The notes under the pieces are model-generated. The model searched no databases. It was given only the letters and a program-made list of their open reading frames with translations, and was not told the DNA's origin. Shown in pieces: positions 7,748-46,566 of a DNA stretch of 64,000 bases. How positions within the stretch are numbered: the first letter of the stretch is position 1; each line of letters starts with the position of its first letter. Origin of the DNA: an uncultured Alphaproteobacteria bacterium (lineage in GTDB: Bacteria > Pseudomonadota > Alphaproteobacteria > CAAHEQ01 > UBA3637); assembly GCA_937888725.1 (NCBI GenBank), contig CALARE010000009.1, forward strand, positions 970-64,969, written 5' to 3'. The position numbers and the translations under genes are program-made.

Positions 7748-7772
7748 CGCTCTACCTGACTAAAAACAAATA

Positions 7773-28239: not shown

Positions 28240-31200
28240 TTAATTCTTAGTGTAAAAAATTCTAGTTGGATAATTATCTCCTATTATGCTAGGTAATTCA
28301 ATGCTAATTTTTTGAACTTGAAAATCAACACTAGATTCAAATGGGAATAAATTTTCATAGTAATTGTACGCAGCACATCTCCAATATAAAAATCCTTGAT
28401 CGAAAATTAGATTTATAACATCCCCATTTTCTAGCTCAATAATTAAAATTCTATTGTGTTCTAGATATTTTTTATTTCTTTCTTGAATATTAAATTTTAG
28501 ATCAATGCTTGCAAACAATTTATTTAAAACAGCCTTGCGTTCAGATGATCTAGGCCATTCATCGTAAAATTTACCAGGTGTATATTTTATATTATCTTCA
28601 TTTTCACATGTTAATAAATTAATTTCAGTACACTTCCAATTATTTGCATATTTATTTTTTATTGCCTTTATAAAATTAAAGAATAAACCACAAGAAAGAG
28701 GATTTTTGATATAACGATCTTTGTACGTTATTTTTACTATATTGGATGAAATTCCGTTATTTAAACTCTCAGATAAAATATTTAACAAGCTTTGACCAAA
28801 TAAATTTCCGGAACAGTTTACTTCAGAGGAAATATTATACATTTTATCAAAGCTTGTTTTGATATCGCTGTTTAATGCTACATCGTAAAATTCTTTTTTA
28901 TCAATATCAATATATCCTGAAAGAATTGAAGTATTAACATTACTTCCCCAATATGGATTTAATTTTTTTACATCTTGATCTAAAGAAGCATAAGCATAAA
29001 AACCGGTACCGTTATTTATAACAGCCATTATATTCTTATTCAAATTATCTGGAATTGACTTTATTGAAACATTTTTATACTTAGAAAGCAATCCTAGAGT
29101 TTCTTTTACATCGTCACTGATTTTTGTCGCATCAACACATAAAATTGTATCAATTCCCATGGAATTATATCTATTTACTAATCTATATAATGGTGAGTTT
29201 AAAAAATCTTCATCATCATCTTGTTGGGGTACCAACAAATACAATTCCTTAATACTTAGAGTATCTTCAATTAAACTTTCGATACTGGCCGAAGCGATAA
29301 CTGTGGTATCGCCAAAAATTTTCATATTGTCGGCTAAAGTATTTTTTGAAATCCATTCATCTGTTAAAAAGTCTAAAGCTAATAACCTATCTAGGTGTTT
29401 ATAGTTGTATTTAGTATCATTTTGTAAAATACATTTATTACATGATTGAGCACAGTCACAAGTTAATGTATCTTTGGCATACTTAAATATGCGACTTAGA
29501 TTTTTGATAATATCATCAGATGAACAATAACCTGATGCATTTTTATCAAACAATTCTATTGAAAATCCTTTTTTATTTGATCCAACAAGTTTTATTTCTT
29601 TTGTTCCACAGCCAATTTCGTCAGTTTCGATATTCATATATTTGGCTATACCACTGCGAATTGCTACTGCCAATGAATATGCGAGAGTTTTATCGTTAAC
29701 AATTTCTCCGTTAATATCTGATAAAATAAGTTCCAAAACATCAGTTTTGACTTCAACTCCTAGAGAAATATTTTCCACTATTGAATATGGAGAATGATTA
29801 CATTCTACTTTCATATTTCTCATGTTGGGATTAAAACTATTTGCACTTCTTAAACGATAATGTGATTTTCTAAACTCAACTCTGTTCTTTTCATTGTTTG
29901 CAACAACTCTGCCACACTCTAAACAAAGTATGTAGCCGTCACCACCGCCATTTGAGTAATGAATGACACTTCCTTCTTTATCATTTTTATATTTTATGTA
30001 AGGTAAACCCAAATAATTATTTAAATCATTGTGAGCAGTAACTAGTGGTTCACATAAATTTACAAAATGTTGAACAGATACGTTATTATTAACGGGAGCA
30101 TTAAAATCAACAGAAAAACCTGCTGGCTGTATATACTTGTGAATATTATGTCTATCGATTTCTTCACCACATACATCACAGTGAATATCTAGTAATCTTG
30201 TTGATGTACCACTTGCACCACATTTATTACAACGCCAAAAATAACGAATTGACTGAATTTCTTTAACCTCTGTTTCTGAGGCAGGAATATGCCAATTTAG
30301 TGTAATACCTGCAGATTTATATACAAGACCATCAATAACAACATCGCTACCGGGAGCGTACTCTCTTAATGCTGTGCAAATATCTCTTGAAGGCAATTCT
30401 CTTCTTTTAAATAAATTGTCTTCTCTTTCTCCATAATTCTTTTGCATTCTATAGTCTTGATTTTCGATGCTATATCGATTGTTTGTATCAAAAGTTACGA
30501 TATTTATTGGAAAACCATATCGTGGTAAAATTCCATATCCTATCATTTCTTTTAATAGGTATTCATGCAGTAAGCGTGTCTCAGTATTTTTAATAGCGAT
30601 TAAACTAATTTTATGATCTTTTTCTCTCTTTTTTTGCTCTTGAATTGCATCATATTCAGCAAACCACTTCTTTTGCATATTTTCAATTTGCAGGCTCAAT
30701 TCTGAGACAAACACATCAAAACTAATATGTTCATAATGTGTATTTTTGATTAAAGAATGAATAGCCGCCTGAACTCGATTATTTGTTCTGATAGCATCTT
30801 TGCAGAAACGTTTAAATTTGGAAAGCTTATTATCTTTAAAAGGTAACATAAGCCATTCCATATTAAGTTTGGTCGCATCACTAATTTGGCCTTTAATTGA
30901 TTCAAAAAAGTAGGATAACAATAAAGAATTTATATGTCTCAATAATACAATAAAGCTGTATTGATCTACGTAAGGAGCATTTATTTTTGATGTAAATGCC
31001 CATTTGGGATGATTAAAAACATATTGGTCATGAGAGTTGTCTTTACATAAAGTAAAGCTTATCGCCTTTGTTTCTCTACGTCTTCCTGCACGTCCTGCAC
31101 GTTGTAAATAATTGGCCGGATGTGGCGGAACATTATTCATAGATGCAATCGTTATACCACCGATATCAACACCCATTTCCATTGTGGTTGAACAGTTAAG

Positions 31201-34200
31201 AACATTTATAGCTCCACTTTTAAATTCATCTTCATATCTTTTTAATAGTCGATGAGATTGTTGAGCCGAGTGTTCCGCTGTTCTGAAATATCTATTTCCA
31301 AGGATAATTGAGCTTGCAACGTTGCTCCATAACCCAAGTTTTTTTAAATTTTGTACATCTTCGTTGCTTTCAAGCCAATCTCTTCTTAATGAAATACATT
31401 CTTCATAAGATTTTCCTAGTTCATTTTTAAAATCATAAATTGGATAATTATATTTATTACACTTAGGGGTCGTTTTGCTTGAAGAATAAGGAGAATACCC
31501 TTTAAGTACAACATCTAAAGCCTTATTTGTCATAGGACAAATATAAATTTCTTTAGGTCTAGTTAAACCGATTTTATTTACATCTAATTTATATGTTTTT
31601 GCCGTTGACGGTGTTAAAATTCCAGTGGTAATTGTTAAAGCATCCCAAGCTTCTTTCATAATTTGATTTAAAATATCTAAATGAAGATCATTATCTATAC
31701 TTAAATCAAGAGCATATGACAATAAATTTATTATATTTTTATTTTTTTTCTTTTTTGCTACAGGCCAGTTTTCCTGATCTAAAGCTCTGTTTGTTCTTTG
31801 AAGAGCTCCCCATTTATTCCAGTTTTCAGGATAAGCAACATATCCATTGGCACGAATATAAAAATCTATTAGTATTTTAAGAAAGTCTTTCCATTCATTT
31901 AATTCAAAAAATCTATGTATAGTATCTGGTACTTTCGTGATTTTGCTAAAATCATAAACTGTTGATAACAATCCTAATGTTTCAACATTATTCGCTTTTT
32001 TCGGTCTTCGTAATAGTTCTCTAGCAAACAATATTTCTATTAAATTACGACGTCCTTTATCTGCATCAAAAATGGAATCTTTATCTCGATAATAATTATA
32101 TATCCATCTTAAATCATTGTCGTTAAATTCTTTTATTATTTGATTTAAGACCTCGTCTTCTTTTGCAAAAGAATCGTGTTTTTGTTCCAATTCTTTAATT
32201 GCATTTAATAAAGCAGGAAGTTTTGTCGTTTCATATAGTTTTTTTAATGCTGCAATATCAGTACTTCCTGATGGTTTTGTTTTTTCTTGTTCTAATAATG
32301 AAACAACGTGTAATAAGATACTTCTGAAACTGTTTCTTTCGGAGTTTTGTTGTAGTTGAACAGCTAACCTAGCAGTTCCCTGTCGGCTATCTGTAAAACA
32401 TATCATTTTCTGTCCTTTATGAGGATTTTCATCCAATTTTTCTCCTGCTTCAGCATAATTTAATAATGTCGGTAAAGCATGACTTAAAACAAATGGTGCA
32501 CCTTGCATAGGAAGAAATGATTTGATTTGGTCAATTTCAGGAGTATCACAACAATGGACATATTCATCATCTTCAAAAACATTTATCTTAATTCCATTTT
32601 CACAATTGCTAGACAATGAATTATCTGCAGTATTCAAATAAACAGAAGAATTATCATCTACATTGTAAATATATGCTGTGTGAGTTTCCAGTTCTACAAT
32701 ATTATTTTCTTCGTCTTCCAATGAAAACTCATCAACATTTTGCAACATCGTAGGATATAAGTATTTAGTGCCTGATTTTTTATCTTCACTGATTTTTGCT
32801 TCTAAGAAAGGTGTTCCACAATTTGAACAGGCTTTTACTCTGAAAACAGGAGCACCACATTCACAAGAGCATTGTTCTTTTAAGTAAATTTTTCCGTATT
32901 TCCACCCATCTATGTTGTCTTTATGCGTACATTTATCATTGCAGCAGGCCCATATACCAGGAAACGTCTTATGGAATAAATGCAAACGAAGTGGCAAAAA
33001 CGCCTTTTCTTTATTAGGAGTAACGGATAATAAATCAAGCCATTCTGCTGCTTCTTCCTTTGAAATTTTAAAAGTCTTACATATTTCTGATAAGGTTCTA
33101 GCAACAGAACGTGTCCCATCTTCAGAAATAAAGAATGATCGTAATTGGCAAGCAAATTTATTGTTTTTTAATTCTTTAATAAGTACATCAGGATCCGTTA
33201 TAATTTGCAGCTCAGATAATGATTTTGTTTGATTATCTGCTGTAATCGTTGGAATTTCATTATGTCCAAAAACAACTTCAATATTTTCTTCATTAACACC
33301 TGAAATACTTGATAAAAATTGTTTTAATTGCTGTTCTGCGTTTATGCTTCCGATAGTAGCAGATGTTGCGATAAACTTAACATCTTGAGCATTTACATCA
33401 AATGCATCTAAAACTCTCTTCAGAAGTAATGACAACTCTGCAGCTTGTGAACCAATATATGTATGAGCTTCGTCTAGAATAATGTATTTTAACATTCCCT
33501 TAGATTTATCAATAATTTGCTTATCATTTGCTCTAATAAGCATGTACTCTAACATCGTAGTATTGGTAATCAATAATGGTGCAGGAGATAAGCGAAGTCC
33601 CTGTCTATCGGTTATTTCTTCCAAGGATTTTTTTTGTTCGTGATTTGGATTTTCAGTAGGTAATAATCCATTATAAAGACAGAAACGAATTTTACCTTCG
33701 TAAGGTTTAGTCCATTCGCTAAAACGTTCTTTTTGGTTCTGAATTAATGCATTAAGAGGATATATAAATAAAGCCTGGACACCTTCTAAAACGTTTGAGC
33801 TACCTTTAGATTGTCTTACCAAATCAGATATGATGGGTATCATAAAGCATTCTGTTTTTCCTGAACCTGTACCACTTGAAACAACCAATGAATTATTTGT
33901 ATTTAATAATGTTTTCCAAGATGTTATTTGGTGTTCATAAGGGTGCATTGTTTTAGAAAATCTATATTCTGTAGATTTATTTAATACATTAACAAAAGAA
34001 CGTTCGAGCAGTTTTCCGGACAACTCTTCAAAAGAATTGCTATCTGTTTTATAACTAAACATTGGTTCAAACACAGGGTCAGAAAGGAATTTTTCATCTT
34101 CCAGTGAAAACTTATCTCTTAAAAACTCACGCAAATTTTGTGGCAATATGGATAAAGTGCTCATAATGGCATCTTTTGATTGCTCTGGTAATATTTTTAA

Positions 34201-34227
34201 GATTTCACTGTAACTGTTTCTTTTCAT
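28240..34227 (-). CDS. giant DEAH-box helicase with a DUF1998/MZB-type zinc-ribbon domain and an unknown ~600-aa C-terminal domain (DruE-like, 1995 aa)
   Basis: Motif I SSGTGSGKTE, motif II ILDEAHTY, motif VI QRAGRAGRR. After the helicase core come paired CxxC zinc ribbons (CNKCG…CDVCG, CLECG…C…C, CDCAQSCNKC). It is translationally coupled 1 nt after the upstream gene. Confidence 0.6.
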   Translation of the reverse strand: MKRNSYSEILKILPEQSKDAIMSTLSILPQNLREFLRDKFSLEDEKFLSDPVFEPMFSYKTDSNSFEELSGKLLERSFVNVLNKSTEYRFSKTMHPYEHQITSWKTLLNTNNSLVVSSGTGSGKTECFMIPIISDLVRQSKGSSNVLEGVQALFIYPLNALIQNQKERFSEWTKPYEGKIRFCLYNGLLPTENPNHEQKKSLEEITDRQGLRLSPAPLLITNTTMLEYMLIRANDKQIIDKSKGMLKYIILDEAHTYIGSQAAELSLLLKRVLDAFDVNAQDVKFIATSATIGSINAEQQLKQFLSSISGVNEENIEVVFGHNEIPTITADNQTKSLSELQIITDPDVLIKELKNNKFACQLRSFFISEDGTRSVARTLSEICKTFKISKEEAAEWLDLLSVTPNKEKAFLPLRLHLFHKTFPGIWACCNDKCTHKDNIDGWKYGKIYLKEQCSCECGAPVFRVKACSNCGTPFLEAKISEDKKSGTKYLYPTMLQNVDEFSLEDEENNIVELETHTAYIYNVDDNSSVYLNTADNSLSSNCENGIKINVFEDDEYVHCCDTPEIDQIKSFLPMQGAPFVLSHALPTLLNYAEAGEKLDENPHKGQKMICFTDSRQGTARLAVQLQQNSERNSFRSILLHVVSLLEQEKTKPSGSTDIAALKKLYETTKLPALLNAIKELEQKHDSFAKEDEVLNQIIKEFNDNDLRWIYNYYRDKDSIFDADKGRRNLIEILFARELLRRPKKANNVETLGLLSTVYDFSKITKVPDTIHRFFELNEWKDFLKILIDFYIRANGYVAYPENWNKWGALQRTNRALDQENWPVAKKKKNKNIINLLSYALDLSIDNDLHLDILNQIMKEAWDALTITTGILTPSTAKTYKLDVNKIGLTRPKEIYICPMTNKALDVVLKGYSPYSSSKTTPKCNKYNYPIYDFKNELGKSYEECISLRRDWLESNEDVQNLKKLGLWSNVASSIILGNRYFRTAEHSAQQSHRLLKRYEDEFKSGAINVLNCSTTMEMGVDIGGITIASMNNVPPHPANYLQRAGRAGRRRETKAISFTLCKDNSHDQYVFNHPKWAFTSKINAPYVDQYSFIVLLRHINSLLLSYFFESIKGQISDATKLNMEWLMLPFKDNKLSKFKRFCKDAIRTNNRVQAAIHSLIKNTHYEHISFDVFVSELSLQIENMQKKWFAEYDAIQEQKKREKDHKISLIAIKNTETRLLHEYLLKEMIGYGILPRYGFPINIVTFDTNNRYSIENQDYRMQKNYGEREDNLFKRRELPSRDICTALREYAPGSDVVIDGLVYKSAGITLNWHIPASETEVKEIQSIRYFWRCNKCGASGTSTRLLDIHCDVCGEEIDRHNIHKYIQPAGFSVDFNAPVNNNVSVQHFVNLCEPLVTAHNDLNNYLGLPYIKYKNDKEGSVIHYSNGGGDGYILCLECGRVVANNEKNRVEFRKSHYRLRSANSFNPNMRNMKVECNHSPYSIVENISLGVEVKTDVLELILSDINGEIVNDKTLAYSLAVAIRSGIAKYMNIETDEIGCGTKEIKLVGSNKKGFSIELFDKNASGYCSSDDIIKNLSRIFKYAKDTLTCDCAQSCNKCILQNDTKYNYKHLDRLLALDFLTDEWISKNTLADNMKIFGDTTVIASASIESLIEDTLSIKELYLLVPQQDDDEDFLNSPLYRLVNRYNSMGIDTILCVDATKISDDVKETLGLLSKYKNVSIKSIPDNLNKNIMAVINNGTGFYAYASLDQDVKKLNPYWGSNVNTSILSGYIDIDKKEFYDVALNSDIKTSFDKMYNISSEVNCSGNLFGQSLLNILSESLNNGISSNIVKITYKDRYIKNPLSCGLFFNFIKAIKNKYANNWKCTEINLLTCENEDNIKYTPGKFYDEWPRSSERKAVLNKLFASIDLKFNIQERNKKYLEHNRILIIELENGDVINLIFDQGFLYWRCAAYNYYENLFPFESSVDFQVQKISIELPSIIGDNYPTRIFYTKN

Positions 34228-34228
34228 G

Positions 34229-37200
34229 TTATCCTGCCAATTTTTGGTTTAACATTATAGATATTGCAATTTTATACACTTCTATAAAATAATTTTGGTT
34301 AAAATTTATAAAATCTTTTATTGAAAATTTAATTAATTCATTAATATTTGATGGGTTTGAATTAAGCTCTTGATAAAAAGAATAAAAAGCACAGACTTGA
34401 GGGAAATTAACAACATCTTCTATAAAGTAATTAAATTTATTCAATCTAAATAAATGTTTTTCAAGATTACTTAATTCTACCGGGTGTTTTACTTTTATTT
34501 CATTGTATACCTTATCAAATGGTAGATATATCCAATTATCTTCCTCTAATGAATTTTGTGTTTGTAGTTGATGCATCCAACACATTTCAACAATATTCCC
34601 GTATTCGTCAAATACTTGTTTTGTAAAAATTTCATCACTTAGCTCTTTAATACTTTTTGTATTTGCGATAGAAACATGAGGAACGATATTGCCAAGTATA
34701 AGAAAATTGTAAAACTTTGAAAGCAAACCGCAAAGTGAATAATATACAGCCAATTCTATTTCGGGGAATGTTTCAGACAAGATATTAAATTGCTCATTAA
34801 TTTGCGATTTTAGAATTTCTTCCATGCCTGGTATAGAAGAAAATGTTGTTTTAATATAGTTTAAATATTCTTCAATAGCAGGCTCCCAAAGTGAGAATGG
34901 GATAGTTGCCGGAACAGATATTACTTCTTCTTTTATTTTTTGAAGCATAAATCTATCAGATGAAAAATAGATGAGCAATCTGCATAATATTTTTTCATCT
35001 GAACATAATATTTGCCAAAGGTTCATAGATGATAGTGGAATGTCGTGTGAAACAAAAATTTGCTTCAAACTACTAATATCTTTCCATACATCAGATGAAA
35101 AATCTGAAAGGTTTGCAAGTATGATATCTTTTATTTGTTGTTTATTATCGGCCTCTAAAACAGCTTCTTCAATTTCTTCAAAAGAAGCATCTGAGTAAGA
35201 AATTTCATTTTTTAAAATTACTAATTTATATAATTCGGTAAGTTCATCTAGACTAGTATCACTATATAGAATTAGAGGTTTGGTGTTTATTTGAGATTTT
35301 TTATCAGAAACCAGGATGTAACAATTCTTTTTTAAATCAATTGGTTCAATACTCCAATATCCTGTACATATTTGGTCCTCCATCTTCTGCTCAAGAATAA
35401 CAGGTTCACATTCAGGATCGGATAAATTGATGGCTTTGACTATTGTGTTTTTGAGCATGTCATTTGTATACATACCAAAATTTGCAGGCGGTATATAAAC
35501 TGATTGGGTTTCTAGCAACAGATGTGTATCGTATCTTGAAACATTTATAAATCCCAAATTTTTATTTTCTAACGTTATAGATATTTTGACTTTGTCATCT
35601 TCATTTTCGGAATACCCAAATAAATTTTTTATATTGTCTTCAAAATCAATTAATTTAATCTCTGTTAATACGTCATTTGTGTATATATGGCGTGTTAAAG
35701 ACAAATTTTTACTTGTTCGTACTTTTGTACGTAATTCAAAATGAAGTTTATATTTTGAAGAAGATTTTAAGTTATTAAATATTCTAATTCTTTTGCCCAT
35801 TAAATGAACTAAAGAAATATTAGAAGAATTTATACATTTTTTATTTTCATCAAAAAATGATACTCCAACTGAAGGGTATGGAAGATATATCAGAGATGTA
35901 CCACCGCTATACCAATATATCTTAAAACATACTTTATCTGGTTTTGTTGTTGTAGTTTCAAATTGAAATTCACATCCATCAACTACTGTGCATTTTAATG
36001 AATCAGATAATAATGGTTCAATTTTAATGGCATTTAAACTATTAAGCTTAATTACTCCATTACCATTTTCCAACGCATTAAAATTTATTGATGAACTGGG
36101 TGGTAATATCGTCACGCTAAAAGTTTTAGAAATACCACCATGGGTACAATTGATATCAAGATTTCCCGAAAACTTATTGATGTCTACAATGGGGTGTGTT
36201 GTATCTTTGTAATAATAATTTATATATCGTGAAGAAACATCATTTTTTTTAGAAGTCTCATCATAATATATAATTTTTGGAATTCCACGATAAGCAACAA
36301 ATGGGAAAGTTTTATACGTTATAATATTGCCTTCTACACAATATTTATTGTTTGAAGGGTTAGATGAATTTAATTGAACAAAAAAGTCATCAAATTCAAA
36401 ACTTTCTTTGCATTTAATTAATCTGAAGACAATATCGTCAATTACAATATCAGTTACATATTCACCTACTGAACTATAATCATTGTTTTTTTCATTATAT
36501 GCTATAAAGCATTCGCTTTCTCTTAAATACGCACTTCCATTGTTTTTTAATATTAATAGGCCATCTTCGTTTTCAGTAAATACAAGGGGCCTATTAACAT
36601 CAATTGATTGAGAAATTGTGATGCTATTTGATTGTATTTTATTATCAGCACTGGATAAAAATAATGTTACAGAATTTTTGACATCAAGTCTATCGTCAAA
36701 TTGTCTTATTTTATACTGTTTTTTTGATCCAAGTATTAAGTTTACAATAGCAATTGTTGTATTTTCGCTATCTAAGTTATTGATATAAAATGTTTGAGGT
36801 AATGTATTTACATCAGTAATTCCAAAATATTTTGAAAAATATTTAGCCTCTACATTAAATTCAGGAAAAATAAATTGAAATTTTAATTTATTTGAATTTT
36901 CTAAATCCAGTATTCTTTCAACTGTTGGGATTTTCCCCTGTACTCTCACTCCTGTGGAACGACTTGCTTCTTCTACGAAACCACTCAACATTTTTTCAAC
37001 AGATGCATCCTCCATAAGAAGAGGAAACTGAGACTTCCAATCTGGAGCTCGTTGATTTAATATTTGAATTGGATTTTTATACTCTTGTAGCTTATAATCT
37101 ATTTTTAGCTTGATAATAGTTGTTACTAAACTTGTAATAAGTTCACAAATTTCATCTTTTCTAATGGCTTCAGGAAGTATTTTTTGCAGATTTTTAACAT

Positions 37201-37720
37201 ATGCAAATAATTCAGCTCCGTTTGAAGTATGCTCTGTTGCAAATCTAATTGTATGATGCAGTATTTTTACAACAGGAGAATTTTTGCTTGCTGCTTGTAT
37301 AAATTTAGAAGGAATACCACCATTTGCTACAATTGCACCTAAATATTTTTTACCAGAAACTAAAGTTATGTTATACTTCCAGTACTGTAAAGCTTCTATA
37401 ATTGCATTGGTTCTTACGTTGGATTGATATATTTTTAATTCGTCATTGGAAATAGATGAAAATATGGGATCCCATGACCAAGCACCACCCTTGTATTCAC
37501 GTTTCCACCATTCAGAAGCATAAAGCACAAAGCAGCGAGAAAAATACTTATTTTTAAGCAAATCTACGAGCGAATGGTATTGACAGCAATATTTTAGTTT
37601 GTTTCTAAGGTCTTCGTATTCTGCTTTGTTCATCTGATATGCATAAAGCATCATGCCATTTGGGTAAGGCATATTCCTTTTTTGTAAAAAATCTCTTAAA
37701 AATTCATGTAATATTTCCAT
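34229..37720 (-). CDS. large hypothetical protein (~1163 aa) with no recognisable motifs, upstream partner of the helicase (DruH-like by position)
   Basis: Long uninterrupted ORF. The start is chosen at the ATG at 37718-37720, preceded by AAAGGTG (the ORF-track start at 37756 has no RBS). The stop is 1 nt before the helicase ATG. Confidence 0.5.
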   Translation of the reverse strand: MEILHEFLRDFLQKRNMPYPNGMMLYAYQMNKAEYEDLRNKLKYCCQYHSLVDLLKNKYFSRCFVLYASEWWKREYKGGAWSWDPIFSSISNDELKIYQSNVRTNAIIEALQYWKYNITLVSGKKYLGAIVANGGIPSKFIQAASKNSPVVKILHHTIRFATEHTSNGAELFAYVKNLQKILPEAIRKDEICELITSLVTTIIKLKIDYKLQEYKNPIQILNQRAPDWKSQFPLLMEDASVEKMLSGFVEEASRSTGVRVQGKIPTVERILDLENSNKLKFQFIFPEFNVEAKYFSKYFGITDVNTLPQTFYINNLDSENTTIAIVNLILGSKKQYKIRQFDDRLDVKNSVTLFLSSADNKIQSNSITISQSIDVNRPLVFTENEDGLLILKNNGSAYLRESECFIAYNEKNNDYSSVGEYVTDIVIDDIVFRLIKCKESFEFDDFFVQLNSSNPSNNKYCVEGNIITYKTFPFVAYRGIPKIIYYDETSKKNDVSSRYINYYYKDTTHPIVDINKFSGNLDINCTHGGISKTFSVTILPPSSSINFNALENGNGVIKLNSLNAIKIEPLLSDSLKCTVVDGCEFQFETTTTKPDKVCFKIYWYSGGTSLIYLPYPSVGVSFFDENKKCINSSNISLVHLMGKRIRIFNNLKSSSKYKLHFELRTKVRTSKNLSLTRHIYTNDVLTEIKLIDFEDNIKNLFGYSENEDDKVKISITLENKNLGFINVSRYDTHLLLETQSVYIPPANFGMYTNDMLKNTIVKAINLSDPECEPVILEQKMEDQICTGYWSIEPIDLKKNCYILVSDKKSQINTKPLILYSDTSLDELTELYKLVILKNEISYSDASFEEIEEAVLEADNKQQIKDIILANLSDFSSDVWKDISSLKQIFVSHDIPLSSMNLWQILCSDEKILCRLLIYFSSDRFMLQKIKEEVISVPATIPFSLWEPAIEEYLNYIKTTFSSIPGMEEILKSQINEQFNILSETFPEIELAVYYSLCGLLSKFYNFLILGNIVPHVSIANTKSIKELSDEIFTKQVFDEYGNIVEMCWMHQLQTQNSLEEDNWIYLPFDKVYNEIKVKHPVELSNLEKHLFRLNKFNYFIEDVVNFPQVCAFYSFYQELNSNPSNINELIKFSIKDFINFNQNYFIEVYKIAISIMLNQKLAG

Positions 37721-37877
37721 ATAGGCACCTTTAATGAATACAATATTGTATTTCATAGCATATTTTTTTTAATTATTCAACAAACTTCATTATTAGAAGT
37801 GCCAAAAAATGACGTTTGTTCATATGTTTTTTTGCAAAAATAGTTAAGGTATCTACTTTAAGGAACTTTAATATTTT

Positions 37878-37899
37878 CTACAACTTACGCACATGGTGT
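37878..37899. repeat. 22-bp direct repeat, second copy, in the divergent promoter region
   Basis: See 28172..28193. Confidence 0.6.
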
Positions 37900-38020
37900 T
37901 TGGGGTATATAAAGAGATTTTCATTTTTTTTGAAAAAAATGACTATTTTCTTGCAATTTTAGGTATAAGTCGTTAAAATGTGACGGATTATAATTTTATG
38001 CTGATAAATGAGGTGTTTTC

Positions 38021-40069
38021 ATGGCAGACGATATTCAAATTCAAAAAATGGACGGCAAGAGCCTTGATGTGACGGGCGTAAACAAGGAAAAGTTGAAAAC
38101 GGTTTTTCCTGAGTGTTTTACCGAGGGTAATTTGGATATTGATAAACTGTTGTCTTTATGTGGTGAATACATAGACAACGATTTTGAAAAGTATAAATTT
38201 GAATGGAAAGGCAAATCTGAATGTTATCGGATTACTGGTAAGCGTTCAACCGGGACACTTCGTCCTTGTGTGGAAGAGAGCGTGGATTTTGAAAACACCA
38301 ATAATCTTTATATTGAAGGCGACAATTTAGAAGTTTTGAAACTTTTACAAACAGCCTATTATCGCAAAGTCAAAATGATTTATATTGATCCGCCGTATAA
38401 CACAGGCAATGATTTTGTTTATGAAGATGATTTTAAGAACCCGATGGCAAAATATAAAGAAATTACAAGCCAAACAACAAAATCAAATCCCGAAACAATG
38501 GGCAGATATCATACCAACTGGTTGAATATGATGTATCCTCGCTTGCGTTTAGCCTCTAACTTACTTCGTGATGATGGTGTGATTTTTATCAGCATTGATG
38601 ATAATGAAGTTACAAATCTTCGTCGTTTATGCGATGAGGTATTTGGGGAGGAGAATTTTGTAGCTCAATTTATAGTAGCCTCTAATTCAACAAAAAATAA
38701 TTCAAAATATGTTTCTGTTTCTCATGAGTATATTTTATGTTACTGTAAAAATATCTACTCACTTGGAGATGAGTGGAAAGTAAAAAAGAATAACGTTGAT
38801 GAATATTACAATCGTGCAATGCAACTTGTTAAAAGAAATTTATCAGAAGATGAGATTCATAATGAATTATTAGAGTTGGTAAAATATCCAAGATTTTATG
38901 ATTTAGATCACTATACCTATGCGGATAAAAAAGGAATATATCAGACAGATAATCCTGGTGGAGTAACCAATGGAAATATGCTTACGGAAGTTATTCATCC
39001 TGTAACAGGAAAAGTCTGTGCAAAACCCATTGGGGGTTGGAGATATAAAGATGAAGAAATCAAAAGATTAGAAAAAGAAGGTTTGTTAGCTTTTGGTAAA
39101 GATGAGACAATCGTTCCTAGACCTAAACGATATTTAGGGGATTATATTTATCAAGTTCCTAAATCAACGCTTTTCTTTGACTCTCAATCATCTACAAAAT
39201 GGTTAAAAGCTAATAATTTGCCTTTTGATTTTGCAAAGGCAGTTGATTTTATAAAGTATATTTTATCTACCTCATCTAAGGAAGACGATATCATTCTTGA
39301 CTTTTTCTCAGGCTCTGCAACTACGGCTCATGCAGTTATGCAATTAAATGCCGAAGATGGTGGCAAACGTCAATTTATCATGGTGCAATTACCGGAAGTA
39401 ACCGATGAAAAGTCTGAAGCATTCAAAGCCGGATATAAAAACATTTGTGAAATAGGTAAAGAGCGTATCCGTCGTGCCGGTGCTAAAATCAAAGCAGAAG
39501 ATGATTTATGGAAAGAAGTTCCTCTTAATCGACTTCCCACACCAGAAGCACAGGCTTGGGTGCCTCCAAATTTAGTTAGAGTAGAAGACTTAAAAGATAG
39601 AAAATCACCAATAGAATATGTTGATGAAAGTAAAAATCCTGATGTTGGCTTTAAAGTATTCAAATTAGATACTTCAAACCTTGTTAAATGGGATGATACT
39701 CCTATTGAAGGGGTTGATACAACCGATTTGTTTAATCGTATGGACGGTATGGTTGAAAGCATTAAAAAAGACCGGACCGAACTTGATGTTGTCTATGAAG
39801 TAATGTTAAAACTCGGGATTCCCTTGACATATAAAGTCTTTGAAAATGAAGTGAATGGTCGCAAAGTTTACTCTATTGGCGATGATGGGTTGATTTTGGT
39901 ATGCTTGGATAAATCAAATGGCGGCATTACACCGGAAGATATTTCTGCTATGTGCGATTTAACACCGGCTAAAATCGTAGCTGCAGAAGAAGCCTTTAAG
40001 GACGATGTCGCTCTTTCAAACGCTTACTACATCTCAAAAGACAAAGGCGTGGAAATAGAATTGTTGTAG
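38021..40069 (+). CDS. mod: Type III R-M-like N6-adenine DNA methyltransferase (Mod, beta-class)
   Basis: Motif IV DPPY (IYIDPPYNTGNDF) N-terminal to motif I FLDFFSGSATT, ~680 aa, GAGGTG RBS. Confidence 0.75.
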   Translation: MADDIQIQKMDGKSLDVTGVNKEKLKTVFPECFTEGNLDIDKLLSLCGEYIDNDFEKYKFEWKGKSECYRITGKRSTGTLRPCVEESVDFENTNNLYIEGDNLEVLKLLQTAYYRKVKMIYIDPPYNTGNDFVYEDDFKNPMAKYKEITSQTTKSNPETMGRYHTNWLNMMYPRLRLASNLLRDDGVIFISIDDNEVTNLRRLCDEVFGEENFVAQFIVASNSTKNNSKYVSVSHEYILCYCKNIYSLGDEWKVKKNNVDEYYNRAMQLVKRNLSEDEIHNELLELVKYPRFYDLDHYTYADKKGIYQTDNPGGVTNGNMLTEVIHPVTGKVCAKPIGGWRYKDEEIKRLEKEGLLAFGKDETIVPRPKRYLGDYIYQVPKSTLFFDSQSSTKWLKANNLPFDFAKAVDFIKYILSTSSKEDDIILDFFSGSATTAHAVMQLNAEDGGKRQFIMVQLPEVTDEKSEAFKAGYKNICEIGKERIRRAGAKIKAEDDLWKEVPLNRLPTPEAQAWVPPNLVRVEDLKDRKSPIEYVDESKNPDVGFKVFKLDTSNLVKWDDTPIEGVDTTDLFNRMDGMVESIKKDRTELDVVYEVMLKLGIPLTYKVFENEVNGRKVYSIGDDGLILVCLDKSNGGITPEDISAMCDLTPAKIVAAEEAFKDDVALSNAYYISKDKGVEIELL

Positions 40070-40079
40070 AGGTGTTGGG

Positions 40080-40802
40080 ATGATTTTTATATTTGAAGAA
40101 ATAATAACAAAAGGTTTTTGGGATTGGATTGAAACAATAGCCACAATATTGGGTAATATTGGTCTTTTTATTATTACTTTTTACGTATTCTGGAAACAAT
40201 ATTTTTCAAAAAATATAAAAATAACTTCAAGCGGAGAACATTCGTCTATTTACTTTGGAAATGCGATTAACTGTACGCTTTTTAACAAGACACTTTCACC
40301 TGTTGTTGTTGAAAAAATTGATGTTGTATATGATAATAAATATGAAGTAACTATAAAAGATTTTAAAGAAAATCCTCTTGTTCTAGAATATTTTAGATCA
40401 GCTTATATTAAAGGGGAAAGATATACTTCATTATCTGAAAAATTAAATACTCTTTTTGCAAGAGATGTCTATTATAAAGTCAAAACCCCAGATAAAACTA
40501 TACTGATAAAAAGTAGAGGAAAAATAAAGAAGAAAAATAAACTTACGCATATTGCAACATTTACACAACGTTTTGATGATACTGTAATTTCAAAAGGTGT
40601 ACGCTATGTTTTAATTTATTGGCTAAAAGGAACTAAGGAATTTAATAGGGTATTCATTTTAGATAACGGTATGATGGACAAGAATATTGCAAACTTCAAT
40701 CAATTACCAAGAGAAATTCTTGGCAAACCAAAAGAAATGTTAAAGTTTTTTAAAGAAACATTCAACAATCCAGATTTAAATATTCGGATTCATGAACTTT
40801 AA
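40080..40802 (+). CDS. small membrane protein of unknown function inserted between mod and res
   Basis: 240-aa ORF with an N-terminal TM helix (IATILGNIGLFIITFYVFW). An AGGTG RBS sits 10 nt after the mod stop. Confidence 0.5.
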   Translation: MIFIFEEIITKGFWDWIETIATILGNIGLFIITFYVFWKQYFSKNIKITSSGEHSSIYFGNAINCTLFNKTLSPVVVEKIDVVYDNKYEVTIKDFKENPLVLEYFRSAYIKGERYTSLSEKLNTLFARDVYYKVKTPDKTILIKSRGKIKKKNKLTHIATFTQRFDDTVISKGVRYVLIYWLKGTKEFNRVFILDNGMMDKNIANFNQLPREILGKPKEMLKFFKETFNNPDLNIRIHEL

Positions 40803-40829
40803 TCAGTTTATTGCCAAGTGAGGATATTA

Positions 40830-43800
40830 ATGAAACTAAAGTTTAAGAATCAAGAATTTCAGACCGATGCCGTGAATGCGGCGGTGGAGCTGTTCAAAGG
40901 CCAAGAAAAAGCAAATATGACTTTTTCAATCGCTGATAACTCCGCGCAAGCCTCTTTTTTGCAAAATGAATTCGGTTTTGGTAACAAGTTGGTGTTAGAT
41001 GAGGAAACAATAAACAACAATCTTCATGCAATCCAAAAAGCTCATTCTCTCCCCCAAACCGATATTGAATCTGGCAAAGCCTTGCCCATTTCTATTGAAA
41101 TGGAAACCGGAACCGGTAAAACCTATGTTTACACAAAAACTATTTTGGAACTCAATAAACGTTATGGTTTTACAAAATTTATCATTGTTGTGCCAAGCAT
41201 TGCTATTCGTGAAGGTGTGAATAAATCTTTCCAAATCACCGAAGAACACTTTAAAAATCAGTATGACAGCGTGCCTTACAGATATTTTATCTATAATTCG
41301 GCTAAACTGTCTGATGTTCGGGCTTTTGCAACCTCCAGTAACATTGAAATTATGATTATCAACATTGATGCTTTCAAAAAAGCTGAAAATATCATCAATC
41401 AAGAGCAAGAAAAGCTCAATGGCGAAACCGCAATGAGATATATTCAAGACACAAATCCGGTTGTGATTATTGATGAACCGCAAAGCGTTGATAATACACC
41501 TAAGGCAAAAGAAGCCATTGCGACCTTAAATCCTTTGTGTGTCTTACGTTATTCTGCAACCCACAGAGAAAAGCAAAATCTTGTCTATCGTTTAACGCCG
41601 GTTGATACTTATCAAATGGGATTGGTTAAGCAGATTTGTGTTATTTCAAACTCGGTTATCAACGATTCAAACAAGCCTTACATTGCATTAAAATCTGTTT
41701 CCAGTAGCGGTGGATTTAGTGCCAAAATTGAAATCGATGTTGAAGGTAAAGACGGTAAAGTGTCCCGTAAAACAATAACCGTTAAGCCGGGAGATGATCT
41801 GTACTTAAAATCAGGACATCGTCAATTATACGAAGGCTATGTCGTGGCCGGTATTGACTGTACAAGCGGTTATGAGTGTATTGAATTTTCTAATGCCGAA
41901 TGCTTGAATTTAGGTAAAACCATCGGTAGTGTTGATGAAAGTATCATTAAACGAGCTCAGATTTATCACACCATCAAAACACATTTGGAAAAGGAAATCC
42001 GCTTGTTTGACAAAGGAATTAAGGTCTTGTCCTTGTTCTTTATTGATGAAGTTAAAAAATACCGTTTAGAGGATGGCGGACAAGGTATTTATGCCAAAAT
42101 GTTTGAAGAATGCTATAACGAATTGATAAATAATCCTCGTTATGCTGTTTTAAAAGAAAAGTTTAATACGGATGTTACCAAGGCTCATGACGGATATTTC
42201 TCTCAGGATAAAAAAGGTAAATATAAAGACACCAAGGGCGATACGCAGGCCGATGATGATACCTATAACACCATTATGAAAGACAAAGAAAAACTGCTAT
42301 CTTTTGAATGTCCGTTAAGATTTATCTTCTCTCACTCCGCACTAAAAGAAGGTTGGGATAACCCGAACGTTTTCCAAGTTTGCACTTTAATCGAGCAAAA
42401 ATCGGTCTTTACCTGTCGTCAAAAGGTCGGTCGAGGACTTCGTTTGTGTGTCAATCAGGATGGCGAACGCATTGAGGATAAAGACGTCAATGTCTTGCAT
42501 GTCATTGCTAATGAAAGCTTTGCCGAGTTTGCCGATAAACTGCAAAAAGAAATTGAAGAAGAAACCGGCGTTAAGTTTGGTGTTTTGGAAATCGGTATGT
42601 TGACAGGGTTAACTTACGAAGAAGAAGTTAAGGTTGAAAAACAAATCTCTCAGGAAACTGCCGAAACAGTTGTTCAAGAACTTCAAAAGACCGGCGTTAT
42701 TGATGATTGTGGGGCGGTTAATAAAGAAGTGGCCGTTGAAACAATTGAGCTTTCAAGTGTGCCGGAACCTGTTAAAAAAGAAATTATTGAAACGATAAGA
42801 CAGGAAAAACCCGTAACAGTTGCTGCTCTTTCGCAAACAACCTATACCGAAACAAAGGTTGAAAAAGTTTCTGTCAGCTATGAAGAAGCCGTTCAAATCA
42901 TGGAAGATTTAAAAGGCACTCAGGTCATTGACAGTAAAGGTAAAATCAAAGATACCATGAAGGCAGAACTGGCCGCCGGTACTTTGAATTTAAGCGACAG
43001 ATGGTCAAAGGCAAAACAACGTGCTGTTTTACAGGCCTTAAATAAAGCCGATAATAAACCGGTTATTCGGGATGCAAGCAAAGAAGTGACTGTTAAATTA
43101 AAGAAAAAAGCAATCCTTAGTCCCGAATTTATGGAATTGTGGAATAAAATCAAGCAAAAGACCACTTATCGTGTTCAATTTGATTTGGATACTTTGGTTG
43201 CAAACAGCATTAAAGAAATTAAGGAAATGCCCGAAATCGGAACGGCTCGCTTACTCAGTCAAACAGCCAGTGTTAATATTGAAAAATCGGGTGTTTCGCA
43301 CCAAGCAGGAAGAACATATATTCAAGATTTAACCCGTAACTATGAAACATTACCGGATATTTTACGCCTGATTTCCACGAAGACGCTTTTGAAACGGTCA
43401 ACAGTTAATCGTATTTTACAAGAAAGTGGTCGCATGGCAGACTTTTTGAAGAATCCGCAAGAGTTTTATGAAAAAACATTGGAAATTATTGAACGCAATC
43501 GTCATAAATTGGCTATTGACGGTATTAAGTATATTAAACTCGCCGATGAAGAATACTATGTTCAAGAAATTTTTGACAGCACTGAGTTGATAGCTAACCT
43601 TGATAAGAACGCAGTTGCCGTTGAAAACAGTGTTTATGATCATGTCATTTATGATAGTGGAGTTGAAAGCAAATTTGCTGTTGCCTTGGATAAAGATCCG
43701 GATGTTAAAATGTTCTTTAAAATCCCAAGCCGATTTAAAATTGAAACACCTATCGGAACCTATAATCCGGACTGGGCAGTTTATTTAGAGAAAAATGGCG

Positions 43801-43973
43801 AGCAAAAACTTTACTTTGTGTTAGAAACCAAAGGAACGGATAATTTATTCTTGCTTAGAGAAGAAGAAAAATTGAAAATCATGTGCGGAGCCGAACACTT
43901 TAAGGCTTTAGACGGCGTTAGTTTTTCAAAAAATCCTGTCAGAGAATGGAAAGAATTTAAACAAACGGTGTAA
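40830..43973 (+). CDS. res: Type III restriction enzyme Res subunit (SF2 helicase/ATPase plus C-terminal PD-(D/E)xK nuclease)
   Basis: METGTGKTYV (motif I), VIIDEPQS (motif II), QKVGRGLR (motif VI), and a C-terminal …YNPDWAVY…LETKG nuclease motif. GAGGA RBS. Confidence 0.75.
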   Translation: MKLKFKNQEFQTDAVNAAVELFKGQEKANMTFSIADNSAQASFLQNEFGFGNKLVLDEETINNNLHAIQKAHSLPQTDIESGKALPISIEMETGTGKTYVYTKTILELNKRYGFTKFIIVVPSIAIREGVNKSFQITEEHFKNQYDSVPYRYFIYNSAKLSDVRAFATSSNIEIMIINIDAFKKAENIINQEQEKLNGETAMRYIQDTNPVVIIDEPQSVDNTPKAKEAIATLNPLCVLRYSATHREKQNLVYRLTPVDTYQMGLVKQICVISNSVINDSNKPYIALKSVSSSGGFSAKIEIDVEGKDGKVSRKTITVKPGDDLYLKSGHRQLYEGYVVAGIDCTSGYECIEFSNAECLNLGKTIGSVDESIIKRAQIYHTIKTHLEKEIRLFDKGIKVLSLFFIDEVKKYRLEDGGQGIYAKMFEECYNELINNPRYAVLKEKFNTDVTKAHDGYFSQDKKGKYKDTKGDTQADDDTYNTIMKDKEKLLSFECPLRFIFSHSALKEGWDNPNVFQVCTLIEQKSVFTCRQKVGRGLRLCVNQDGERIEDKDVNVLHVIANESFAEFADKLQKEIEEETGVKFGVLEIGMLTGLTYEEEVKVEKQISQETAETVVQELQKTGVIDDCGAVNKEVAVETIELSSVPEPVKKEIIETIRQEKPVTVAALSQTTYTETKVEKVSVSYEEAVQIMEDLKGTQVIDSKGKIKDTMKAELAAGTLNLSDRWSKAKQRAVLQALNKADNKPVIRDASKEVTVKLKKKAILSPEFMELWNKIKQKTTYRVQFDLDTLVANSIKEIKEMPEIGTARLLSQTASVNIEKSGVSHQAGRTYIQDLTRNYETLPDILRLISTKTLLKRSTVNRILQESGRMADFLKNPQEFYEKTLEIIERNRHKLAIDGIKYIKLADEEYYVQEIFDSTELIANLDKNAVAVENSVYDHVIYDSGVESKFAVALDKDPDVKMFFKIPSRFKIETPIGTYNPDWAVYLEKNGEQKLYFVLETKGTDNLFLLREEEKLKIMCGAEHFKALDGVSFSKNPVREWKEFKQTV

Positions 43974-43976
43974 ACA

Positions 43977-46541
43977 ATGGCTGAGGCTTCACGTTTTCAA
44001 TCCTCGTTTGAAGCGGTTTGGACGGCAAGATGTCTTGCCGGTCTTGTTGATGATGAAAATTTAGTGCCTGCGTTTGCCTCTGCTAACATTAAGATTTTGC
44101 CATATCAAATAGCGGCGGCCCGTTTTGCTTTGCGATCTGCAAACTTAAAAGGCTGTATTTTATGTGATGAAGGCAGTCTTGGTAAAACTTATGAGGCTTT
44201 GTTGGTTGTATCGCAACGTTGGTATGAAGGTAAAGAACGGATTTTAATCGTTTTGCCCCAAAACCTTAAAAGTCAATGGCAAGAAAAACTCACCAAAGAA
44301 TTTACTCTACCGATAACCGATTGGAGCGAATATACACAAGAGACCAAAGGCCTGTGCCTGATGACGTATGATGAAGTCATTAAAAATGAAGAAAAAGTCG
44401 GCCAAATTGTTTGGGATTTAGCTGTTTTTGATGAGGCAGATTTTCTATTCAAACCAGACAACAAATCGGTTTCTACGATTAAAAAGGCAGTTGGGAATGC
44501 GTTTAAATTGCTTTTAACCCCGACCCCTATTACATTAAGCATCATGGATATTTATGGACTTATCCATTTTATTGATGAAACTTTGTTGCCCGATGCTGAC
44601 AGCTTTTATAAAAGATATTTTAGAAAGCCCGAAAACTATCCTGAACTTTCATCATGGGTATCCAAATTTGCGTTTAGAACTTTAAAAAGACAGGTTGAAC
44701 CTTATGTTAATTTTACCAAACGTTTGCCGGTTGTTCTAAATTACACGCCACAAGATGACGAGAAAAAGCTCTATGATTTAACCGAAAAATATTTGGCTCT
44801 TGATAACAAAACTGCCTATCCGCAAATGGATAATTATCAGTTAGCATTACAATTTTATAGAAATCTTTCTTCCTCTCCGCAGGCTTTTGCCAATATGCTG
44901 TCGGCTCCGATTGAACGGGCTTCGTCTGATGAACGCATTATTTTACAGACAATGCAAAAAATGGCTTTAGATGTTTCCGTTTCGGCTAAAATGGAAGAAT
45001 TATTAAAGGCACTAAAAACAACATTTACGCATTTAAAATCACGCAAAGAAGTGCAAAAAACCATTATTTTTGTTGATAACCTGACAACTTTATCCGTTTT
45101 ATCAGAGTTATTAAAGGAACATTATTCGATTATAAAACACACAGATGATAATGCTTTGAACATTTTTAGAGAAGATAAAAATATTCAAATTCTTATCACA
45201 AACGATGCAACTGCCAAAGGCTTAGACATAGAATATTGCCCCATTGTCGTGAACTATGATTTACTTTATAACGCCGTTGAGATGGAACAACGAATTTGTC
45301 GTTGCCACCGCCAAGGACAACAATCCGATGTGTTGGTTATCAATTTGCTCAGTCAGGAAAATATGTCTGATGTGCGTATTTTGGAATTGATTAACAAACG
45401 AACTTTACAATTTCAGGGTATTTTCGGGATGTCAGACGATATTGTCGGTCATTTTGATGAAACTTTGGAGGCTGTTTTACAAAAACGACGAACCTTGCCC
45501 GATATTCAACGGGATTTTGCACAGAACTTAGAAACAAATAAAGATGCCAACTCTCAAGTTGTTTCGGATGCCGAAAGTGTTTTGTTTACGACATTTACAA
45601 AAGATGTAGCCGAAAAAGTACAGGTTTCACCGCAGTATATTCAAGAACAGGCCGAGTTCATCAATCGGGACTTATGGGAGGTTGTAAAGTTCTATTTTGA
45701 AAAACATTTTCCTGAATATGTTATTGATGAAAACAATCAAACCTTAACCCTTTCGGACGGTTATGAGCCGCCAAAGATGTTCTATTATTGGAATGGGACA
45801 AGAAATACACCTTATACGGGAAAACGTCAGTATGGTATGGCAAAAGATTTTAAACCTTCCAGTGGTCGGATTACCCTGACATCAATTTTAGCCAAGGGAA
45901 TTTTTAGTGAAATTGAATGTTCTACAGAGGGTAAAATGCACCTTGAAACAGATATACCTTCCTGTCAAATCAGCATGTATATGGTTGAATTACGCCGAAA
46001 AGGAAAGTTCCTTAAATGTTATGATGTTTTAACCGGTAAGACGAGAGATGGCAAGATTTTAACACAAGAAGAATGTGTAAAAATTCTATCACAGCCAATT
46101 AAATCTCTTGAAAATAAGGATAGAGAACGGTCTTATTGGCTTGCAAACAGTTCGTTTTCTGACAGATTGCCATTAGCCTTAGAGAATGAGTTGAAAAACA
46201 ACTATATCAAGCAACAAGAAAATTGTTTTAATGCTGATATTGATATCATTAAAATGCGTTCATCTCGTCAAAAAGCCGTATTAGAACAAACTCTTGAATC
46301 CTTACGCCAAGAAACATCAAAAATTAAAGAGAGTATCGGTAGTGCTAAAGACCGCTTAGAAGAACTTAAAATTCAAAAACAAATCAACGAAATGGAAAAA
46401 CAACTCCGCAAAAAAGAAGAAGGCTTGTTCTTTGAACAAATGCGTATCGAAGCCACCGCCGAAGAACAAATAGAACAACTCTGTGCTACTGAAAATATAG
46501 AGGTTAAATTATCAAAGGTATTTAAGGTGATGGTTTGTTGA
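43977..46541 (+). CDS. SNF2-family helicase-like protein with a C-terminal coiled-coil region (854 aa)
   Basis: LPYQIAAARF, CDEGSLGKTYEALLV, VFDEADFL, LLLTPTP, QRICRCHRQGQ. The start is 4 nt after the res stop. Confidence 0.65.
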   Translation: MAEASRFQSSFEAVWTARCLAGLVDDENLVPAFASANIKILPYQIAAARFALRSANLKGCILCDEGSLGKTYEALLVVSQRWYEGKERILIVLPQNLKSQWQEKLTKEFTLPITDWSEYTQETKGLCLMTYDEVIKNEEKVGQIVWDLAVFDEADFLFKPDNKSVSTIKKAVGNAFKLLLTPTPITLSIMDIYGLIHFIDETLLPDADSFYKRYFRKPENYPELSSWVSKFAFRTLKRQVEPYVNFTKRLPVVLNYTPQDDEKKLYDLTEKYLALDNKTAYPQMDNYQLALQFYRNLSSSPQAFANMLSAPIERASSDERIILQTMQKMALDVSVSAKMEELLKALKTTFTHLKSRKEVQKTIIFVDNLTTLSVLSELLKEHYSIIKHTDDNALNIFREDKNIQILITNDATAKGLDIEYCPIVVNYDLLYNAVEMEQRICRCHRQGQQSDVLVINLLSQENMSDVRILELINKRTLQFQGIFGMSDDIVGHFDETLEAVLQKRRTLPDIQRDFAQNLETNKDANSQVVSDAESVLFTTFTKDVAEKVQVSPQYIQEQAEFINRDLWEVVKFYFEKHFPEYVIDENNQTLTLSDGYEPPKMFYYWNGTRNTPYTGKRQYGMAKDFKPSSGRITLTSILAKGIFSEIECSTEGKMHLETDIPSCQISMYMVELRRKGKFLKCYDVLTGKTRDGKILTQEECVKILSQPIKSLENKDRERSYWLANSSFSDRLPLALENELKNNYIKQQENCFNADIDIIKMRSSRQKAVLEQTLESLRQETSKIKESIGSAKDRLEELKIQKQINEMEKQLRKKEEGLFFEQMRIEATAEEQIEQLCATENIEVKLSKVFKVMVC

Positions 46542-46566
46542 TCGTTTCTTTATAGCGAAACATGTG

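Follow-up and report, generated by a model that had tools for sequence, protein, structure and literature searches.

Type III restriction-modification (R-M) enzymes are the textbook case of a two-subunit system, and their long-range communication along DNA has been worked out without a helper protein. Cleavage by these enzymes needs two inversely oriented, unmethylated copies of an asymmetric site, and methylation, as established for EcoP15I, is placed on one strand only and hence leaves unmodified sites at each replication. In several other defence systems an SNF2-family gene lies ahead of an adenine methylase gene, namely in DISARM class 1 (DrmD-DrmMI), ARMADA (ArmA-ArmB) and BREX type 3 (BrxHII-PglX). 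ARMADA combines a BrxHII-like SNF2 protein (ArmA), a PglX-like methylase (ArmB) and a YprA-like helicase (ArmC) in one operon (PMC12458937). Here we compare these systems with a locus in a 64,000-nt stretch of contig CALARE010000009.1 (GCA_937888725.1) from an uncultured Alphaproteobacteria bacterium, hereafter the window, in which a Type III mod-res pair encloses a gene for a small membrane protein (TM240) and is followed by a gene for an SNF2-family ATPase.

Sequence comparison suggests, with a probability that we put at roughly 0.65, that positions 37860-46541 form one mobile operon consisting of a Type III R-M system, a co-evolving DrmD-like SNF2 protein and the passenger TM240 in a hypervariable slot. 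The four open reading frames (ORFs) of the original prediction were all recovered exactly, and the module comprises the following features:

37860..38020, + strand: upstream control region of the Mod-Res-SNF2 module, delimited by the edge of blastn homology, with a promoter-like site at 37951-37979
38021..40069, + strand: mod, Type III N6-adenine DNA methyltransferase and specificity subunit, 682 aa, assigned by Pfam, PADLOC and EcoP15I homology
40080..40802, + strand: TM240, putative passenger in the mod-res slot, 240 aa, N-terminal membrane helix and immunoglobulin (Ig)-like beta-sandwich
40818..43973, + strand: res, Type III restriction subunit, superfamily 2 (SF2) ATPase with C-terminal PD-(D/E)xK nuclease, 1051 aa when read from the GTG
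43977..46541, + strand: SNF2-family ATPase, DrmD-like, 854 aa

All four genes lie on the + strand with spacers of 10 nt (mod/TM240), 15 nt (TM240/res) and 3 nt (res/SNF2), the last of these in agreement with the claim that the SNF2 gene starts 4 nt after res. Mod and res thereby share a strand and short spacers, with the passenger gene between them. A sequence scan from mod to SNF2 found no convincing terminator inside the operon, and upstream of mod a promoter consensus match (TTGCAA-17-TAAAAT) was present at 37951-37979, as a pattern match only. Phase variation of mod was considered and rejected, as 37700-46600 holds no simple-sequence repeats.

Mod and Res are, by sequence, true homologues of the EcoP15I subunits, and the enzyme is of Type III. 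Mod matched Pfam N6_N4_Mtase (PF01555, 9.8e-34), the PADLOC model MTase_III (645 bits) and EcoP15I Mod (PDB 4zcf_A, E 5.5e-83). Its DPPY motif at residue 123 precedes motif I at residue 428, which is the order originally proposed and that of the beta class; motif I itself reads DFFSGSATT and is FxGxA-like, not the strict FxGxG that had been claimed. Res matched Pfam ResIII and RE_endonuc (1.3e-37), PADLOC REase_III (987 bits) and EcoP15I Res (PDB 4zcf_C, E 6.4e-66). The helicase motifs and C-terminal PD-(D/E)xK domain ascribed to it were found, with GTGKT, DEPQ and QxxGRxxR intact and PD...ExK at residues 984-1006. Because its score against NCBIfam PRK15483 (357 bits) lies under the equivalog cut-off of 564, Res is a relative and not an equivalog of the enterobacterial enzyme. 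The true start of res is probably not the mechanically called GTG at 40818 but the ATG at 40830 (MKLKFK...), which follows the ribosome-binding site GAGGA, is common to all close relatives and yields 1047 aa, the length of most Res homologues; this start was inferred from 14 relatives.

A Mod subunit, a Res subunit and a shared operon, the sequence-level marks of Type III R-M, are thus all found in the module. In common with the classical enzymes EcoP15I and EcoP1I, it has the beta-class methylase order, the SF2 ATPase motifs and the C-terminal PD-(D/E)xK nuclease. It differs from both in adding a third conserved gene, the SNF2 ATPase, and in that mod and res are separated in most of its relatives, and from EcoP15I in ~340 Res residues (587-927) that remain unaligned. 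The idea of a Type III R-M operon carrying two non-canonical features, an inserted membrane-protein gene and an appended SNF2 gene, is therefore supported.

The SNF2 protein has a helicase core at residues ~1-500, which contains K70 of Walker A and the acidic pair D152/E153, an alpha/beta region at 552-720, a coiled-coil hairpin at 733-836 and a terminal strand at 841-853, and domain searches found neither a nuclease nor an effector domain in it. Its best matches were DrmD models in both PADLOC (PDLC02619, 266 bits) and NCBIfam (DrmD_b, 253 bits against a curated cut-off of 950), which bears out the DrmD-like assignment and suggests a homologue of DrmD, not an equivalog. A secondary match to BrxHI/BrxHII reached 88 bits, and RapA is among the closest solved relatives. 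A single-sequence search of 1.84 billion representatives found the C-terminal module in 151 clusters, in each case at the C-terminal end of a protein of ~850-900 aa.

To follow the gene neighbourhood, 79 genome loci encoding SNF2 relatives (36-93% identity) were searched with the proteins of the window. Forty-two of these were complete, with a full-length SNF2 gene flanked on either side by 7 kb or more, and 40 of the 42 contained both Mod and Res, in the order SNF2-Mod-Res (24 loci), Mod-Res-SNF2 (14) or another order (2). The hosts include uncultured gut Alphaproteobacteria (the group of the window), Gastranaerophilales/Melainabacteria, Clostridia and Desulfovibrionaceae, together with a Bartonella plasmid. 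The identities of SNF2 and Res to the window co-varied (Spearman 0.845, n=52). In a small check seeded with Res homologues picked regardless of SNF2, SNF2 was adjacent in all four loci (P0305, P0390, P0351 and P0327), and such loci often adjoined integrases, serine recombinases or prophage genes. The conservation of the neighbourhood, on which the original prediction had made its case depend, thus holds for SNF2. The linkage in 40 of 42 complete and 4 of 4 Res-seeded loci, together with DruE/DruH homologues within 10 kb in none of the 79, indicates that SNF2 belongs with Mod-Res and that the Druantia genes next to the module (see below) do not.

The commonest order, SNF2 upstream of mod and often with cargo between the two, matches the DrmD-DrmMI, ArmA-ArmB and BrxHII-PglX arrangements. 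In SNF2-first loci, a small helix-turn-helix (HTH) gene (XRE- or excisionase-like) often lies directly upstream and is possibly a controller (L036 9744-9971, L045 9689-9976, L019 9696-9956, L062 9519-9767 and the plasmid loci L088-L091); it has no counterpart in the Mod-first arrangement of the window. In the P0305 contexts (L098-L100, 4594-15373), the genes run Mod, GIY-YIG, Res, a second Mod of 736 aa, a 136-aa ORF and SNF2. A phage origin of the module was rejected, as 2.9 million viral contigs yielded only 3 relatives.

A plasmid search with Res and SNF2 revealed deeper relatives. A conjugative plasmid of Rhizobium and a plasmid of Planctomycetes have the arrangement HTH-SNF2-(cargo)-Mod-(cargo)-Res; the Salmonella IncFIB plasmid NZ_CP136147 has HTH-SNF2-(cargo)-Mod-Res. 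On the Klebsiella IncFII plasmid NZ_CP084819, HTH-SNF2 lies upstream of a Res-like helicase, with nothing listed between them and no mod listed in a gene table that is itself incomplete. The version on a Monoglobus replicon is closer to that of the window. The SNF2 proteins of Rhizobium, Planctomycetes, Salmonella and Klebsiella scored 650-715 bits against the DrmD model PDLC02619 and that of Monoglobus 284 bits, and the Rhizobium protein aligned with the family of the window over 751 columns, into the coiled-coil region (hhalign probability 100). In each of the five plasmid loci that have a DrmD-like SNF2 gene, this gene stood upstream of mod, often with cargo between. Among 277 plasmids having a Res homologue, at most 50 encoded a DrmD-like SNF2 at E<=1e-30.

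Several observations weigh against the reading as one operon with a co-evolving SNF2 component and a defensive passenger. Two of the 42 complete loci (L021 and L043) lack an intact Res, L018 carries Mod and SNF2 with Res missing, and in L004 3.2 kb of housekeeping-like genes separate Res from SNF2, from which it follows that SNF2 can persist without tight linkage. A Thiodictyon Type III locus (Mod-RhuM-Res) whose Res is 41% identical has no SNF2 at all. The counts are phylogenetically non-independent, because most loci were found by way of SNF2 and related gut metagenome-assembled genomes account for many of them. The proposed role of SNF2 is argued by analogy, and the defence role of TM240 is contextual, because no functional domain was detected in that protein. 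By eye, the L004 insert (6828-10000) contains NUDIX-like hydrolase, FAD oxidoreductase-like, 3-methyladenine glycosylase-like and kinase-like ORFs, and the Res and SNF2 genes that flank it are still ~91% nucleotide-identical to those of the window.

The separation in L004 and the missing Res in L018 would fit an SNF2 gene that is an independent hitch-hiking neighbour, either a stand-alone defence protein or a housekeeping helicase, and some nuclease-fused SNF2 proteins do defend alone, for example HmaA (PMC11232893). We consider this improbable here: SNF2 stays next to Mod-Res in two gene orders and in different phyla, SNF2 and Res co-diverge, the 3-nt res-SNF2 spacer suggests translational coupling, the protein has no effector domain, and its C-terminal module is confined to the family.

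The extent of the mobile unit was delimited by blastn comparison of the window with the relatives L001, L002, L004, L050 and L003, whose Res and SNF2 are 91-94% identical to those of the window. The homology block extends from ~37860 to 46529, and its left edges in the relatives lie at 37859-37925, ~100-160 bp upstream of mod. Within the block, conserved and non-homologous segments alternate:

~37860-38670: promoter region and Mod N-terminus, 88-92% nucleotide identity to relatives
38675-39270: Mod target-recognition region, no nucleotide similarity to relatives
~39270-39500: conserved Mod segment, 81-90% nucleotide identity
39640-40068: Mod C-terminus, ~75% nucleotide identity
40069-40826: TM240 segment, no nucleotide similarity to relatives
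40826-46529: Res and SNF2, 91-94% nucleotide identity

The segment 38675-39270 of mod is read as a variable, swapped target-recognition region, which would imply different recognition sites among near-identical systems. The second break encloses TM240, and in 14 loci the right-hand edge of this slot coincides exactly with the Res ATG.

The slot was surveyed in 55 loci in which both the Mod and the Res ORF could be delimited. Mod and res abut in 12 of the 55, and in ~40 the gap is occupied by one to three ORFs of the same orientation. These ORFs belong to ~27 unrelated families, many of defence type: Bro-N (12 loci), the TM240 family (5 loci, window included), Mrr-like nucleases (Mrr_cat, 4 loci), RhuM (4 loci) and KilA-N (3 loci), with Abi_C/AbiJ, YaaC, DUF6602 and GIY-YIG among the further families. 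Several families match the PADLOC candidates PDC-S05, PDC-S13, PDC-S22 and PDC-S23, and several consist of small proteins with an N-terminal membrane helix. Even relatives whose Res and SNF2 are 91-94% identical to those of the window differ from it in the slot. In several loci (L003, L014, L015 and others), the cargo stop and the Res start overlap by 4 nt (ATGA) or lie within 2 nt of each other, as would be expected if translation of res were coupled to that of the cargo gene.

Embedded genes have been described as genes that lie inside a modification-based system, vary between loci and are found elsewhere too (bioRxiv 10.1101/2024.01.29.577857), with PrrC in EcoprrI and DarTG2 in a Type I R-M system as precedents (PMC12255303; bioRxiv 10.1101/2024.01.29.577857). 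Like the embedded cargo of Hma, BREX, DISARM and Type I R-M systems, the slot genes are small, diverse, often of defence type and co-transcribed inside a modification-based system. Unlike in these, the slot lies between mod and res, with its right edge exactly at the res start codon. TM240 itself shows all three features, as it sits between system genes, varies between homologous loci and occurs outside the system.

TM240 was proposed to be a single-pass membrane protein, and one N-terminal hydrophobic helix was indeed seen (~residues 19-39; helix 13-42 in the AlphaFold2 model), followed by an Ig-like beta-sandwich. The remainder of the protein is probably cytoplasmic, because acidic residues precede the helix and basic residues follow it. 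Homologues are rare, with 11 clusters in 5.8 billion proteins. One homologue, P0129 (46% identity to TM240), is a lone gene on the strand opposite to a neighbouring R-M-like pair of T5orf172/Eco57I type. In the P0129 loci (L080-L083, 8001-8726), the neighbours are a T5orf172/ResIII-like protein and an Eco57I-type methylase, on an element that also has genes for serine recombinases and Fic and a Rep-like gene.

The question whether the TM gene is conserved with the system, raised in the original prediction, is answered in the negative: it is present in 4 of the 79 loci, its slot is swapped among ~27 other families, and a homologue occurs outside this R-M system. This bears on the view that TM240 is an integral regulatory or anchoring subunit of the R-M system. 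Its orientation and its 10- and 15-nt spacers inside the operon are as expected for a subunit, and the order Mod-TM240-Res-SNF2 recurs in L007, L008, L013, L020 and L084-86. Its presence in only 4 of the 79 loci, the empty slot in 12 loci, the unrelated genes that take its place in relatives with 91-94% identical Res and SNF2, a GC content (0.264) below that of Mod (0.353), Res (0.375) and SNF2 (0.366), and the lone, opposite-strand position of P0129 beside a different R-M-like pair make a subunit role highly unlikely. Judged from these comparisons, TM240 is an independent, horizontally exchanged passenger in a hypervariable slot and not a conserved component. On the principle of 'guilt by embedding', it would probably act as a factor for back-up defence or exclusion that is anchored at the inner membrane.

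A 195-aa cargo protein of Gastranaerophilaceae (L033, 14638-15225) matched TM240 with an hhalign E of 0.0014 and a probability of only 17%. The two share an NK(S/T)L(S/T)P...(V/I)...DN.Y motif at equal distance from the membrane helix, and the likeness may reflect a remote family or chance. A second cargo protein with an N-terminal membrane helix gave no hhalign match to TM240.

Upstream of the module and divergent from it lie two further defence genes:

28240..34227, - strand: druE, Druantia type III helicase, neighbour outside the module (PADLOC DruE3)
34229..37756, - strand: druH, Druantia type III, neighbour outside the module (PADLOC DruH3, NCBIfam YjiT_fam)

The first matches PADLOC DruE3 over its full length (1900 bits), and the second matches PADLOC DruH3 over its full length (309 bits) and NCBIfam YjiT_fam (451 bits, cut-off 150). 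The DruH-DruE pair that marks Druantia type III is found in these divergent neighbours only, and by these matches the pair is a complete Druantia type III, separate from the Mod-Res-SNF2 module. The original prediction had called it a DEAH-DUF1998 module; its helicase is DruE, in which Pfam detects no DUF1998 at E<=0.01. The surrounding island is bounded by tRNA-Pro (27556-27632) and a tyrosyl-tRNA synthetase gene on one side and by radical-SAM and glycosyltransferase genes on the other. Further upstream, a 1076-aa ORF (15913-19143, - strand) carries a C-terminal YadA-like anchor of the trimeric autotransporter adhesin type.

The same prediction had seen in the whole locus the part list of DISARM class 1, built on a Type III Res, and had considered a hybrid or a pair of co-operating systems, that is, Mod, SNF2 and Res acting together with the divergent DruE and DruH as one hybrid or as obligate co-operators. 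The DrmD-like SNF2 protein speaks for such a composite, as does the recurrence of YprA-family helicase systems beside SNF2 and methylase modules elsewhere; moreover, ARMADA II adjoins Druantia III, with synergy measured between them (PMC12458937). The part list itself fails. The core triplet DrmA/DrmB/DrmC (PLD) is absent from 28240-46541: no PLD domain was found in the six genes that fill this interval, no separate DrmB or DrmC was found in the locus, and the DrmA-like signal is confined to weak matches inside DruE, at ~39 bits against 1900 for DruE3. The methylase is of the PF01555 N6_N4_Mtase/MTase_III type and not the DrmMI type (PF13659). The module resembles DISARM class 1 in that the best named match of its SNF2 protein is DrmD and in that the SNF2 gene is paired with an adenine methylase; it differs in having no DrmA, DrmB or DrmC, in using Res as the nuclease and a Type III Mod as the methylase, and in an SNF2 score (253 bits) far below the DrmD_b cut-off of 950. 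ARMADA likewise combines SNF2, an adenine methylase and a large SF2 helicase effector and is often found beside Druantia III (PMC12458937). The module departs from it in that SNF2 reaches only 88 bits against BrxHI/BrxHII, Mod and Res take the place of the PglX-like and YprA-like proteins, Res not being YprA-like, and the Druantia neighbourhood is not conserved.

The linkage data point the same way. Besides the lack of nearby DruE/DruH homologues in the 79 loci, the flanking genes of the window (tyrosyl-tRNA synthetase, radical SAM and others) recur in none of them, and the sequence likeness to near-identical modules ends within the 264 bp that lie between druH and mod. Druantia III is, according to recent papers, a self-sufficient two-gene system. 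The composite with obligate co-operation is already largely refuted and would be a very improbable explanation of the locus; sequence comparison suggests that Druantia stands beside the module by chance, within the same small defence island.

On plasmids of Shewanella and B. cereus, a homologous Mod-Res pair is preceded by an SNF2-family gene of another kind. In Shewanella pSBAL67801 (L092, 1808-11159), (HKD+Snf2)-DUF4391 precede Mod-Res, and on the B. cereus plasmid NZ_AP022916.1 (L093, 1-10970), DrmA-DrmB-(HKD+Snf2)-DUF4391-Mod-Res run in one direction, which likewise lends the composite some support. These loci are unlike the module in that the gene belongs to another SNF2 family (PADLOC C3a139, with an HKD nuclease domain) and in the extra DUF4391; the B. 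cereus locus additionally has DrmA and DrmB directly upstream. A system resembling 'DISARM built on a Type III Res' is thus found there and not in the window.

By homology to EcoP15I, Mod would recognise an asymmetric site and methylate adenine on host DNA, and Res, bound to Mod, would use ATP to enter long-range movement along the DNA and cut unmethylated DNA with its PD-(D/E)xK domain. TM240 would be co-expressed with the operon. Motifs and context suggest that SNF2 is an active double-stranded-DNA translocase without a nuclease of its own that works with Mod-Res, most likely as an auxiliary motor supporting the restriction of foreign DNA. It may, for example, clear bound-protein roadblocks or drive the DNA so that Res-Mod complexes meet.

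The main rival for the role of SNF2 is that it protects the host, stripping and recycling Res-Mod from the chromosome in a RapA-like manner and so preventing self-restriction at transiently unmethylated sites. The structural kinship with RapA and the lack of a nuclease domain would suit this role, as would the unmodified sites that one-strand Type III methylation, established for EcoP15I, leaves at each replication. Against this, the classical Type III enzymes do without a factor of this kind. Related SNF2 genes of DISARM class 1, moreover, add to protection: deletion of drmD together with drmMI nearly abolished defence, as seen with one phage and with the methylase also removed (bioRxiv 10.1101/2021.12.28.474362). 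We regard host protection as unlikely, and a motor that supports restriction remains our preferred view of SNF2.

Together, the comparisons point to three genes, mod, res and SNF2, that form a cohesive module with a slot for cargo, beside an ordinary Druantia III. No description of an SNF2 protein with a Type III Mod/Res system was found in the searchable literature, which does not extend to subscription journals and REBASE, and within that literature the module is unnamed. Because the marks of Type III are found, those of DISARM and ARMADA are missing and no naming paper was found, we consider the module a new form of Type III R-M. A bolder reading, possible but doubtful, is that it represents an unnamed subclass of ATP-dependent restriction in which the DrmD-like SNF2 is an obligatory third subunit altering DNA communication or access, the mod-res junction is reserved for back-up effectors that can be exchanged, and TM240 is a new anti-phage effector anchored in the membrane.

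Through the mod-res slot, 'guilt by embedding' can be applied to Type III systems too, where it yields ~27 candidate small defence genes, several of them, TM240 included, without a known domain. The conserved SNF2 partner is widespread in gut bacteria, and more distant versions are found on Salmonella and Klebsiella conjugative plasmids. If SNF2 is required, part of the Type III family departs from the textbook model, and the module, simple and with a defined nuclease, would lend itself to studies of how motors of the DrmD, ArmA and BrxHII type act beside adenine methylases.

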